DNA of 64,000 nucleotides from an uncultured Alphaproteobacteria bacterium (GTDB taxonomy: Bacteria > Pseudomonadota > Alphaproteobacteria > CAAHEQ01 > UBA3637), in contig CALXZG010000003.1 in NCBI GenBank assembly GCA_944393195.1, positions 35,223 through 99,222 on the forward strand, given 5' to 3'. Of this stretch, positions 46,321 to 64,000 are shown piece after piece. Below the pieces are notes generated by a model. It ran no database searches. It saw only the letters and a program-made list of their open reading frames with translations, and was not told the origin of the DNA. Within the stretch, counting starts at the first letter, position 1. Every line of letters starts with the position of its first letter. The translations under genes and the position numbers were made by a program.

Positions 46321-47262
46321 ATGAAGGGAATGTTATCTAAATGGATTGTAATCGGCGTTATCGGTCTGATGAGTGCTAACTCCGTTTCGGCTCAGGAACT
46401 GGTGAGTTCTCTCAGTGAATATCCGAGTTTGATTGCGTTGGTATCGCAGGCGGGATCGGCTGTGTCGGCGTATGATACGTTGGTGGAAGCCGGTGTGACG
46501 ATGAATAACACATTGGGCGGGATTAACCGTTATGTGTCGCCGGTGTTGGGTGCGGCCGGTCGGATTGCCGGAGAAAATTACAGTTTGACCAGTAAAATGC
46601 CGACATCCGTAAAAGGGTTAATGTTGGCGAATATGTCGCCACAAGAAGCGTCGGACGCGATGACGGGGTTGTTAATCCTGGACAAGACAATGACATATAC
46701 GGATGATGCTTTGGCAAAAATTCGGGAAAACCGTGTTGAGGCCATCAATGATACGGCGATTACGTCTATGGCGTATGCTTTGGGAAATGAAGCGGCCATT
46801 AAAAAAGAACAGGAAACAGACGGGTTGGTGGCACAGGCCTTGGGAAATGCAACGGATATGCAGGCTTTGTTCCGGACGTTAACGGCGGTTGATCGGCAGA
46901 CGTTGGTCGTCAGCTTACAGAATTCGGCAATTGAATCAACATCGGCTTCCGTTAAGGCTATGCGAGCGTTAGACGGTGTTGAACAGTCGGCGGCTACAGC
47001 AGCGGAAGAAGCGGCCGAAGGGGAGTCTTTATTGGATAATGTGGCTTCCGGTTTAGGGGCAGCGGATGACGCGGCGGCGGCAGGATTAGGTTTATTGAGT
47101 GATACGATGAAAGGGGTTTCCAGCGGTGTCGGAAATGCGGTAAAGGGGACTCAAAACGCGGTCAGCAGCGGTTCAAAGGCGGCCACCGAATGGGTTGTGG
47201 ATGCTTTTAAATCGTCCGGTGATGATGGTCTGGCGGAAGCGGACAAAGGAGGGGCGTCATGA
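46321..47262 (+). CDS. T4SS-linked secreted protein A (unknown family)
   Basis: 313 aa, AGAGGAGG Shine-Dalgarno, signal peptide ...SANSVSA. The helical Ala/Gln-rich body has a Gly/Ala/Ser-rich tail. ATGA overlap with the next ORF. Confidence 0.75.
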   Translation: MKGMLSKWIVIGVIGLMSANSVSAQELVSSLSEYPSLIALVSQAGSAVSAYDTLVEAGVTMNNTLGGINRYVSPVLGAAGRIAGENYSLTSKMPTSVKGLMLANMSPQEASDAMTGLLILDKTMTYTDDALAKIRENRVEAINDTAITSMAYALGNEAAIKKEQETDGLVAQALGNATDMQALFRTLTAVDRQTLVVSLQNSAIESTSASVKAMRALDGVEQSAATAAEEAAEGESLLDNVASGLGAADDAAAAGLGLLSDTMKGVSSGVGNAVKGTQNAVSSGSKAATEWVVDAFKSSGDDGLAEADKGGAS

Positions 47263-47942
47263 AGAATATTTGGACATATTTAGCGGCGAGTATCGCGGTT
47301 GTCGGGTTTGTCGGCGCGGCGCATGCCATTCCGATTGTGAGTCCGCCGGAAACGATTGCAACGATTAAAGATTTGACGCAGAACGAAACGATCAAAGGAA
47401 TTTCCGATATGCATCAGGAATATCAGGATGCCAGCAATAATATCATGAAATTGCAGACGGCAGCCGGACAGTTAAAGCAATATACTTCGGTGAAGGATGC
47501 GTTATTGGGACGGTCGAATGTTTTATCCGGCGGTATGGGTGTTTTGGGAATTCAGTTAAACAATCCGATTAATGCGTTGTCGGATACGACATTGCGAAAC
47601 ATGGCGAATACGATTGCTTATCCGACGAGTGAGGATGCTCTGCAAAACATGGCGGATCAGGAGTTGCAACGGTTGGCTTGGAAGCAGGCGGAAATTGCGG
47701 GAGATTTAGCGGTTGAAGGAATTGCCCGGGCGTGGATGACGCAGACGGAAGCGTCGGCCAAAAGTCAGGCATTGAGTGAGTATGGGAAAGAAGTAGATAA
47801 TGCGAAGACGCAGTCGGATGTTTTGTTGTCGTTGATTCGAATCAGTTCGGAAATTACGTCCGATATGAACACGCGGGTTATTGTGACATCCGGCGGGGTG
47901 GCAACGGGTAGTGCGGCTGTGTTGCGGGACATTAAGATATAG
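47259..47942 (+). CDS. T4SS-linked secreted protein B (possibly VirB5/TrbJ-like)
   Basis: 227 aa with signal peptide ...VGAAHA. The mature N-terminus is IPIVSPPETIATIKDLTQ..., followed by Gln-rich helices. Size and layout resemble minor-pilin VirB5/TrbJ proteins, by eye only. Confidence 0.7.
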   Translation: MKNIWTYLAASIAVVGFVGAAHAIPIVSPPETIATIKDLTQNETIKGISDMHQEYQDASNNIMKLQTAAGQLKQYTSVKDALLGRSNVLSGGMGVLGIQLNNPINALSDTTLRNMANTIAYPTSEDALQNMADQELQRLAWKQAEIAGDLAVEGIARAWMTQTEASAKSQALSEYGKEVDNAKTQSDVLLSLIRISSEITSDMNTRVIVTSGGVATGSAAVLRDIKI

Positions 47943-47958
47943 AGAGGAGGCGAGCGCG

Positions 47959-63070: not shown

Positions 63071-63091
63071 CAATTTTTCACAGGAGGGGGC

Positions 63092-64000
63092 ATGGGAACT
63101 TTATCGATGACAGATACCTATCGTGTTCTGGAATCGGCTTTGCGTCCTTTGTCCTATTGGTATAATCAGGATAATGTGGAAGATTTGGCGGTCAATGCGC
63201 CGGGCGGAGTGTGGTTGCGCCTACGGGGGAGGCATGCTCATCCGTGGCATTATTATGAAGATCCCAAATTAACGCGTGAATATCTGAATAATATTTTATA
63301 CATTATTGCAAACACGTATGATCAGGCTTTTGATCCGCAGAGTGGTAATCCGGCGGTTTACGCGACTTTGCCGGGCGGTCATCGGTTTACGGGAATTGCC
63401 GGGCGCAACGTTATGTATGACAACGGGGATTTGACCGGCGGGGTGGCCTTAGATATCCGTGTCTATCGTGAAGATTTGGATATTAAGATGAGTCAGTTCG
63501 GCCTTGAAGAAGGGGGACGGCTACGGCATATCAATAAATTAAAAGGGGTTGAAGATCCGGATGATCCGTATGACCGGTTGGTGTTATCGATTAAGCGGGG
63601 GGATCATATTTTAGTCAGCGGGGGAACGGCAACGGGTAAGACGACTTTTTTAAACAACATGATTAAGTTGTTGGATTCCCATAAACGGATTGTGACGATT
63701 GAGGACGTGCGGGAATTAATTGTGCCGCATAAAAACAGGGTTCATTTGGTTTTATCCCGTACCGAACAAACAAATGCTTTTGATTATAAGAAAGTTATTG
63801 ACTTGGTCGTGCGTTTTACGCCGGATGCCATTCTGGGTGGGGAAATTTCCGTTCAAAACGCCGGTGCTTTGTGGGAGTTGATGAACTCGGGGCACGAAAA
63901 CTGTTTCGCGACAATCCATGCGGATTCGGCCGAGGATGCGTATAAGGCTTTCCTAGGTCGTATTTTACACAGTTATCCGACGACGGATCGCGAACGAACG
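63092..64000 (+). CDS. virB11: VirB11 secretion ATPase (N-terminal 303 codons; continues past the window)
   Basis: GGAGGGGG Shine-Dalgarno. Walker A SGGTATGKTTFLN, then IVTIEDVREL and the His-box region SGHENCFATIHA. Confidence 0.9.
   Translation, partial: MGTLSMTDTYRVLESALRPLSYWYNQDNVEDLAVNAPGGVWLRLRGRHAHPWHYYEDPKLTREYLNNILYIIANTYDQAFDPQSGNPAVYATLPGGHRFTGIAGRNVMYDNGDLTGGVALDIRVYREDLDIKMSQFGLEEGGRLRHINKLKGVEDPDDPYDRLVLSIKRGDHILVSGGTATGKTTFLNNMIKLLDSHKRIVTIEDVRELIVPHKNRVHLVLSRTEQTNAFDYKKVIDLVVRFTPDAILGGEISVQNAGALWELMNSGHENCFATIHADSAEDAYKAFLGRILHSYPTTDRERT

Follow-up and report, generated by a model that had tools for sequence, protein, structure and literature searches.

A Chromosomal VirB-Like Type IV Secretion Cluster with a Giant VirB10 and Six Fast-Diverging Secreted Proteins in Uncultured Gut Alphaproteobacteria

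Introduction

The window analyzed here, a stretch of 64,000 nucleotides from contig CALXZG010000003.1 of an uncultured Alphaproteobacteria bacterium, ends in a gene cluster for part of a type IV secretion system (T4SS), in which six secreted proteins (named u1 to u6 in gene order) stand between folD and the scaffold genes for VirB8, a small lipoprotein, a second VirB8, VirB9, VirB10 and VirB11. The locus raises the question of what kind of T4SS this is, what the six proteins are and where the remaining components lie. Here it is proposed that it is probably the envelope-spanning, outward-facing half of a chromosomal, vertically inherited P-type (VirB-like) T4SS found in gut and rumen Alphaproteobacteria, with six proteins that derive from VirB5. 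The cluster is genuine, and it represents a variant, not described before, of an established type of T4SS. An earlier note on this DNA, made from the letters alone, had held that a previous description of the arrangement would count against its reading; none was found in the open-access literature, searched for RF32/Enterousia secretion systems and for VirB10 with beta-flower repeats.

The uncultured Alphaproteobacteria that host the cluster occur commonly in the guts of humans, rodents and ruminants. A T4SS kept in the core genome across family-level or deeper divergence points to cell contact as central to their way of life.

Scaffold Proteins

The Pfam and NCBIfam profiles match VirB8 twice, CagX/VirB9, TrbI/VirB10 and the VirB11 family in the distal part of the cluster. 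The earlier note's identification of a T4SS scaffold operon with a duplicated VirB8 and a giant VirB10 is borne out by these matches and by the length of the VirB10 open reading frame (ORF).

Both VirB8 copies retain the NPxG motif, as NPYG in VirB8a and NPLG in VirB8b. VirB8a is bitopic, with its transmembrane segment at residues 20-50, and VirB8b has one strong N-proximal transmembrane segment. Against the PDB, the VirB8a profile matches TrwG and VirB8 structures at 4e-6 and the VirB8b profile matches Bartonella VirB8 structures at 1.7e-7; the structures matched by both profiles include those of Bartonella, Brucella, pKM101 and R388, and no Rickettsia-labelled VirB8 chain was among the PDB matches of either. 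Profiles were needed for VirB8, the single sequences of VirB8a, VirB8b and VirB9 having given nothing useful against the PDB.

Of all proteins of the cluster, the 58-aa (amino acid) lipoprotein at the VirB7 position is conserved best, with 63-84% identity to its relatives and 97% in the near-conspecific locus L009 (L numbers designate loci and contigs of other genomes). It is 49% identical (2e-11) to a Microvirga plasmid lipoprotein sited between VirB5-like genes and VirB8, and the two have in common the motif GIG..P..LKKSPCAC.

VirB9 joins a CagX/TrbG domain to a C-terminal SPOR-like domain and contains a low-complexity insert. The SPOR match (PF05036) is borderline, with 20.2 bits vs. a cut-off of 21 (E 7.7e-4); VirB9 of L027 has the same borderline match (20.4 bits), and weak precomputed SPOR matches exist for L010 and L013. 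A profile of the VirB9 C-terminus had zero matches in the PDB, and hence no SPOR structure. The SPOR-like domain that the earlier note had pointed out among the remodeled features of VirB9 stands as this borderline match, while the C-terminal extension proved not to be special, being common to the VirB9 of an Erythrobacter plasmid, which is 38% identical (3e-63) with the C-terminal part included.

In VirB10, an N-terminal transmembrane helix (residues 15-45) is followed by beta-flower repeats; the TrbI barrel domain comes next, and the tail is acidic. In Pfam, the TrbI domain lies at residues 1959-2151 (2e-31) and Bflower_2 (PF21785) matches over 12 stretches (1e-87); the repeats have a 17-residue period and cover residues ~240 to 1850, about 1600 aa. 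The orthologues in relatives have 2156 to 2396 aa or more. Among solved structures the barrel matches first ComB10 of Helicobacter pylori (2bhv, 4e-20) and next VirB10 (7e-8), the matches after ComB10 including Xanthomonas VirB10 and CagY. In L003 (11865-18427) and L027 (17581-23987), VirB10 is split into two ORFs within the repeats, either by a frameshift or by an assembly error in the repeats. The best PDB match of VirB11 is Brucella VirB11 (2gza, 4e-16), and TIGR02788 (2e-41) is its best family, though under the NCBI equivalog cut-off.

From these homologies, the VirB7-position lipoprotein, VirB9 and VirB10 are firmly predicted to supply the outer-membrane core, and the two VirB8 paralogues together with VirB11 to supply the inner-membrane assembly and ATPase functions.

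Relationship to Conjugative Plasmids

Among plasmid records, the annotated T4SSs that come closest belong to MobA/MobL conjugative plasmids of Sphingomonadales and Microvirga, namely Microvirga pMVF16-3 (NZ_CP069357.1), a plasmid of Erythrobacter aureus (NZ_CP031358.1) and Sphingosinicella p1 (NZ_CP035502.1, typed MOBQ). VirB11 is about 40-41% identical to those of the plasmid records, with E-values of 1e-56 to 1e-70, vs. about 1e-30 for classical VirB11. The VirB10 barrel (40%, 8e-38), VirB8b (27%, 3e-24) and VirB8a (26%, 2e-11) also match their plasmid counterparts.

The plasmid gene order is MobA/MobL relaxase, then, further along, VirB2, VirB3, VirB4, a VirB5-like protein, a long secreted helical protein, a lipoprotein, VirB8, VirB9, VirB10, VirB11 and VirD4. 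The VirB5-like proteins have 251-274 aa, that of Erythrobacter matching PF07996 at 6.8e-7, and the long helical protein of 430-520 aa is VirB5-related (hhalign 93%). The plasmids thus have two secreted helical VirB5-family proteins between VirB4 and VirB7, where the window has six; their VirB8 is single and their VirB10 has 530-590 aa, in contrast with two VirB8 and 2279 aa in the window; and they have VirB2, VirB3, VirB4 and VirD4 contiguous and with a relaxase, whereas none of these adjoins the cluster of the window, which occupies a chromosomal core position. The homologies show that the cluster, as judged from protein sequence, descends from the same T4SS lineage as these MobA/MobL plasmids of free-living Alphaproteobacteria.

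Components Outside the Cluster and Sister Loci

The earlier note's statement that no virB2, virB3, virB4, virB6 or virD4 lies upstream agrees with the Pfam scan, which found none among 20 of the larger ORFs in positions 1-46000, nor in the operon itself. VirD4 directly after VirB11 is absent in the window species and in all relatives examined, and no relaxase was seen adjoining the cluster.

A contiguous version of the system is found in L027, from a rabbit-gut metagenome-assembled genome (MAG), which was reached through one long relative of u6. This locus has a VirB3-like ORF and then an 827-aa VirB4 (PF03135, 5.5e-14; Walker A GPTGQGKT), after which come six proteins of 575, 238, 437, 173, 660 and 1329 aa with signal-peptide-like hydrophobic N-termini, the 1329-aa sixth being the homologue of u6. 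Next to it follow VirB8, a lipoprotein, VirB8, VirB9 and a giant beta-flower VirB10.

An alignment search with the plasmid VirB4 recovered only Microvirga-type loci, while a search at the DNA level for a VirB4 motif that L027 and the plasmids have in common yielded at least 120 VirB4 loci, nearly all in MAGs of gut or rumen Alphaproteobacteria. In the class nearest L027, nine loci were inspected, whose VirB4 is 62-68% identical to that of L027. Most of these have one to four small VirB2-like genes, then VirB3, VirB4 and secreted proteins, the mature N-termini of which are VirB5-like (IPVxT/D, WPVxD). The VirB2-like gene of L103, the sole copy checked against Pfam, matches TrbC at 1.5e-8. Two to four tandem VirB2-like genes precede VirB3 in L047 (13-2186), L104 (707-1406) and L146 (1345-2632) and recall the amplification of trwL in Bartonella. 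Upstream of VirB2 and divergent from VirB2-VirB3-VirB4, L103 (239-2257, minus strand) encodes a Pro/Ala-rich protein of 672 aa with one transmembrane segment and a homologue in L093 (672-792 aa for the two). It matches no Pfam family, shows nothing that marks it as VirB6 or VirD4, and may be an accessory of the T4SS.

A second class, with 42 of the 120 VirB4 loci among the matches listed and including Candidatus Enterousia, has a stand-alone VirB3-VirB4 pair followed by housekeeping genes. VirB3 of the split loci matches PF05101 at 1.2e-8, and VirB4 is of the PF03135 family. These stand-alone pairs (L075 at 297-3637, L043, L054, L099 and ~40 others) are always followed by one secreted protein of 204-207 aa, which belongs to no family, starts, past its signal peptide, with DDC..YKL.P and lacks a homologue in the window.

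The T4SS lineage is therefore spread widely among gut Alphaproteobacteria, in some of them with a split architecture. Because VirB2-VirB3-VirB4 directly precede the equivalent block in sister lineages, the six proteins u1 to u6 fill the slot of VirB5 and not that of the pilin, and the suggestion in the earlier note that they take the place where pilin or other components might be expected has to be given up as regards pilin. VirB2, VirB3 and VirB4 of the window genome would then be expected at a second locus.

The Six Secreted Proteins

None of u1 to u6 matches a Pfam or NCBIfam family, as the earlier note had foreseen in describing six signal-peptide proteins of unknown family. In a hydropathy scan, u2 to u6 have a hydrophobic segment at the N-terminus and no internal transmembrane segment; u1 fell under the threshold of the scan, and its signal peptide was taken from the sequence. 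The PDB has no match for the profiles of u2 and u4.

Profile comparisons connect some of these proteins to each other and to VirB5. The proteins u1, u2 and u4 are paralogues, with hhalign probabilities of 76-87% (u1-u2 76%, u1-u4 87%) vs. <=0.3% in reversed controls, and u5 is linked weakly to the three. Against a profile of the plasmid VirB5, u1 scores 33 vs. 12 in the reversed control (probability 23%), u2 scores 33 vs. 16 (30%) and u5 scores 27 vs. 14 (7%), and all three align to one and the same VirB5 segment. The signal peptides and sizes of the proteins fit a secreted helical VirB5 of about 220-250 aa, and the mature N-terminus of u2, IPIVSPPE, resembles the VirB5 start IPVxD. In word-index searches, the homologues were 4 proteins for u4 and 10 for u2, too few for a deep alignment; orthologues of u4 are detectable in the distant lineages L010, L011 and L013.

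The remaining two proteins have features of their own. The u3 protein is a single, fused gene in the window and in L006 and separate u3a and u3b genes in five of seven related genomes, as in L001 at 3063-5072, and it is conserved only in its C-terminal 150 aa, with the motif RENQNK...LQKTN.ITAL. The best conserved of the six is u6, in which two Cys and many Trp, Pro and Tyr residues are invariant, and its AlphaFold 2 (AF2) model is confident and made of long helices (pLDDT 85.8, pTM 0.75). Its family comprises 51 clusters in the word search and 216 representatives in an exhaustive profile search; three relatives bear a source name, "hypothetical protein [Alphaproteobacteria bacterium]", from MAGs, of gut origin where recorded. 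Relatives of 1100-1855 aa share the N-terminal region of u6, and the seven long ones scanned have zero Pfam domains. The u6 protein ends in C-x-NGGV, the Cys of which is invariant, and two long relatives (P0171, P0164) end in YCAAY and YCAVY; these endings suggest that a C-terminal disulfide or an anchoring signal has been conserved. Other long relatives include P0161, P0167 and the protein of L027 at 10001-13990.

On the proposed reading, u1 to u6 would be a diversified expansion of the VirB5 and VirB5-related proteins that follow VirB4 in the plasmids, and would form or decorate a stalk, tip or surface appendage. Between genomes, the upstream secreted genes number 4-7 per locus and the u6 relatives range from 490 to 1855 aa. 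Identity to related genomes is 36-48% for u6 and only 24-41%, or undetectable, for u1 to u5, and this fast evolution and the changes in copy number and length fit an exposure of the proteins to partner cells.

Several results weigh against a VirB5-derived set in one half of a complete secretion system. The hhalign probabilities for VirB5 homology are only 7-30%, there is no signal to the plasmid VirB5 profile for u3, u4 and u6, and none of 42 members of the u1, u2, u3b, u4 and u5 families matches PF07996 (VirB5/TrbJ), even at E 10. The AF2 model of u2, built on 8 sequences, is unusable (pLDDT 32), and the model of u6 has no fold match in the PDB by Foldseek (best E 0.26, TM <=0.15). As for the other half of the system, VirB4, VirB3, VirB2, VirB6 and VirD4 of the window genome were not located, the MAGs with the folD-linked cluster have no VirB4 locus among the matches listed (at least 120), and no polytopic VirB6-like protein was seen even in the contiguous cluster of L027.

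The strongest competitor to VirB5 descent, itself rather unlikely, takes u1 to u6 as additional periplasmic or core-complex subunits, like CagM/Cag3 or DotF/DotG/Dis, which with the giant VirB10 would build an oversized core. Such expanded cores with lineage-specific subunits are established for Cag and Dot/Icm, the size of VirB10 suggests an enlarged complex, and u6, with its conservation, its invariant residues and its lack of a VirB5 signal, behaves as a structural subunit would. The divergence of u1 to u5, far faster than that of the scaffold, would be unusual in buried structural subunits, though, and u1, u2 and u5 match the same VirB5 segment above their controls, in the very slot in which the plasmid relatives hold VirB5-family proteins.

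Conservation and Residency

A scan based on VirB9 found the cluster in eight MAGs of uncultured Alphaproteobacteria from guts, among them those of humans (Hadza, Nepal), roe deer and sheep. All full loci keep folD, helical secreted genes, VirB8, lipoprotein, VirB8, VirB9, VirB10 and VirB11. In distant loci, reached via u6 homologues of 26-32% identity and with a GC (guanine plus cytosine) content of 34-46%, the helical genes and those after them up to VirB10 keep their order; these loci end inside VirB10 (recorded product 2200-2396 aa), and one of them, L012, is a 7-kb contig ending just past u6. The fused lptG/lptD gene, surA and folD lie upstream in L010, L011 and L013 as in the window, and the same lptG/lptD-surA-folD synteny is present in all related folD-linked MAG loci examined, across 34-49% GC. 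The genes 3' of VirB11 vary between genomes, and the operon ends at VirB11. The scaffold proteins have identities to related genomes of 78-90% for VirB11, 66-79% for VirB9, 51-77% for VirB8b and 39-46% for VirB8a.

In its GC content, and likewise in its strongly positive GC skew, the cluster resembles the flanking core genes. Because the composition is native and the synteny deep, the cluster is regarded as ancestral and resident, in line with the earlier note, which had judged by eye that the locus is resident and of a composition like its neighbors; recent acquisition was rejected on the same two grounds. It is shown by its conserved position to be chromosomally fixed and is, by the same comparative evidence, a vertically inherited and resident element.

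These data bear on a further explanation, quite improbable, in which the cluster is what decay or domestication has left of an integrated conjugative element, and still serves to transfer DNA. Its closest annotated relatives are indeed conjugative plasmid T4SSs with MobA/MobL relaxase and VirD4; against this, neither of these genes adjoins the cluster, all twelve ORFs after folD are intact, VirB9 is identical on at least ten metagenome contigs, and the position between folD and the varying downstream genes is fixed across deep divergence. The composition is native, and the only recombinase nearby is a Xer-like gene found upstream of lptGD in every lineage.

A ComB-like T4SS for DNA uptake (competence) is less probable still. 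It would agree with the ranking of H. pylori ComB10 first for the VirB10 barrel and with the absence of VirD4 next to the operon. ComB systems, on the other hand, are not known to have VirB11 or VirB5-like genes, while in the window VirB11 is present and conserved; the ranking of ComB10 may reflect only which structures exist, and the plasmid VirB10 is closer. It is highly improbable that u1 to u6 are a separate envelope unit belonging with lptD-surA-folD and chance neighbors of the vir genes, for although in the window lineage they follow lptGD-surA-folD with no clear terminator between, L027 and many other loci have the block flanked by VirB4 and VirB8 and lack lptD, surA and folD in its vicinity, and u6 homologues accompany the T4SS genes in every locus examined.

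Gene Layout and Neighboring Genes

From folD to the end of the window, 13 tightly packed plus-strand ORFs (Table 1) follow each other with overlaps or gaps of <=94 nt, the largest being the gap from 54357 to 54452 between VirB8b and VirB9. The packing that the earlier note had described was found in place, and so was its lack of a convincing terminator: promoter-like and terminator-like sites across the cluster are not more frequent than in shuffled sequence. The independent gene calls on the metagenome contigs with the identical VirB9 give the same 12 genes after folD. VirB11, cut by the end of the window, has 329 aa at full length in metagenome contigs L024 and L025.

Table 1. Genes of the T4SS cluster and the preceding folD in the window.
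Feature	Coordinates	Strand	Evidence
folD	45410-46261	+	ORF; identified by Pfam/NCBIfam
u1, 313 aa, secreted, predicted helical	46321-47262	+	ORF; no Pfam/NCBIfam family
u2, 227 aa, secreted	47259-47942	+	ORF; no Pfam/NCBIfam family
u3, 578 aa, secreted	47959-49695	+	ORF; independent gene calls also 578 aa; no family
u4, 223 aa, secreted helical	about 49700-50371	+	independent gene calls also 223 aa; no family
u5, 239 aa, secreted	50382-51101	+	ORF; no family
u6, 534 aa, secreted, long helices	51117-52721	+	ORF; no family
VirB8a, more divergent VirB8 copy	52690-53343	+	Pfam VirB8 7e-8
VirB7-position lipoprotein, 58 aa	53428-53604	+	lipobox LAAC
VirB8b, canonical-like VirB8 copy	53626-54357	+	Pfam VirB8 1e-13
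VirB9	54452-56194	+	CagX/VirB9 9e-13; SPOR 7.7e-4 at C-terminus
VirB10, 2279 aa	56231-63070	+	TrbI 2e-31; Bflower_2 1e-87
VirB11 ATPase	63092-64000, cut by window end	+	TIGR02788 2e-41

The remainder of the window (1-46000) holds housekeeping and envelope genes, according to Pfam matches of 20 of its larger ORFs. Its strand asymmetry is unusually strong: the GC skew is +0.25 to +0.35 across most of 1-64000, where nearly all genes are on the plus strand; at 28-38 kb, a region with its genes on the minus strand, it falls to about 0 to 0.1. A single plus-strand ORF of 1084 aa (40972-44226) joins an LptF/LptG permease domain (residues 6-360) with an LptD domain (658-1020), and is also one gene, of 1075-1090 aa, in L010, L011 and L013; such a fusion of inner- and outer-membrane parts within the lipopolysaccharide transport bridge would be unusual. 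On the minus strand, a 908-aa protein with the Chlamydia PMP repeat (5111-7837) may be an autotransporter-type surface protein, and an arylsulfotransferase (ASST) lies near it at 742-2358. The genes for anaerobic ribonucleotide reductase NrdD and its radical-SAM activase at 28524-31538 fit an anaerobe.

Proposed Function

In the proposed mechanism, the beta-flower array of VirB10 would enlarge or extend the core complex, by analogy with CagY, and peptidoglycan may be where the complex is anchored by the SPOR-like C-terminus of VirB9. The conjugation context appears to be lost, with neither relaxase nor VirD4 adjoining. By analogy with Trw or rvh, the system most likely serves contact-dependent adhesion and/or the delivery of effectors to other cells; a contact organelle is suggested by the loss of an adjacent relaxase and VirD4, the fast-evolving and expanded proteins of the VirB5 slot, the tandem VirB2-like genes of sister lineages and the CagY-sized VirB10.

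Among these Alphaproteobacteria, at least those of the Rs-D84 order, to which Candidatus Enterousia belongs, have reduced genomes, and the Rs-D84 genomes lack standard uptake transporters (PMC12306168); a 2025 paper on the reduced Rs-D84/Enterousia genomes makes no mention of secretion systems. A broader and much more tentative idea is that a large number of uncultured Alphaproteobacteria of gut and rumen, including reduced-genome Rs-D84/Candidatus Enterousia, may share one vertically inherited and heavily remodeled surface organelle of T4SS origin, which would combine a beta-flower VirB10 of giant size, two VirB8 copies, a u6 family with a new fold, a rapidly diversifying VirB5-derived set and VirB3-VirB4 encoded apart, for attaching to and exploiting partner cells such as bacteria, protists or the host epithelium. 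If true, this would be a lifestyle-defining machine comparable to the rvh system of Rickettsiales and independently evolved from a conjugative plasmid system. Also of wider interest are the extension of ~1600 aa in VirB10 and the u6 family, which is confidently modeled without a match to a solved fold, while the proteins of the VirB5 slot are a natural series that diverges too fast for family models.

Comparison with Known Systems

The rvh system has several VirB6 copies and no known VirB5, and it differs in this from the window, where putative VirB5-like proteins are expanded. The earlier note had likened the scaffold to rvh, and the likeness in gene order stands, since both have VirB8-VirB7-VirB8-VirB9-VirB10-VirB11 (PMC4676284); in Rickettsia typhi, the genes are rvhB9-I and rvhB8-II, then rvhB7, rvhB8-I, rvhB9-II, rvhB10 and rvhB11, then rvhD4 (PMC4676284). 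The rvh system is chromosomal and vertically inherited, lies in several loci, has no conjugation genes and has duplicated components (PMC4676284). The cluster of the window is likewise chromosomal and vertically inherited, with a duplicated VirB8, no adjoining conjugation genes and a presumably split arrangement. An affinity in sequence was not detected in the PDB searches or among the closest relatives from plasmid records, the rvh sequences not having been compared directly. Moreover, RvhB8-II is without NPxG (PMC4676284), whereas both VirB8 copies of the window have it, and rvh duplicates VirB9 and VirB4 and has VirD4 after VirB11, where the window has a single VirB9 and no VirD4. Convergent domestication is the best reading of the likeness to rvh. 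On that reading, the locus would add a second, independent case in which a conjugation machine was turned into a chromosomal system that has a duplicated VirB8 and, as proposed here, split loci.

The Trw system of Bartonella is a host-adaptation T4SS that comes from a conjugative plasmid system and has amplified surface components and no known coupling protein. Its VirB5 (TrwJ) and VirB2 (TrwL) are amplified and diversified, and it is an adhesion organelle (PMC4676284). The sister lineages of the window locus resemble it in their 2-4 tandem small VirB2-like genes. The Trw paralogues are recognizable as VirB5 or VirB2 and the VirB10 of Trw is normal-sized, whereas the paralogues of the window are beyond Pfam detection and its VirB10 is giant.

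In the latter respect the window recalls CagY, which is likewise a giant homologue of VirB10 and combines a large region of repeats with a C-terminal TrbI barrel. The repeats of the window VirB10 (PF21785, 17-aa period) are unrelated to those of CagY, and no Cag-specific proteins were found in the cluster. Taken as analogies, Bartonella Trw appears to be the closest in function and Cag the closest in structure.

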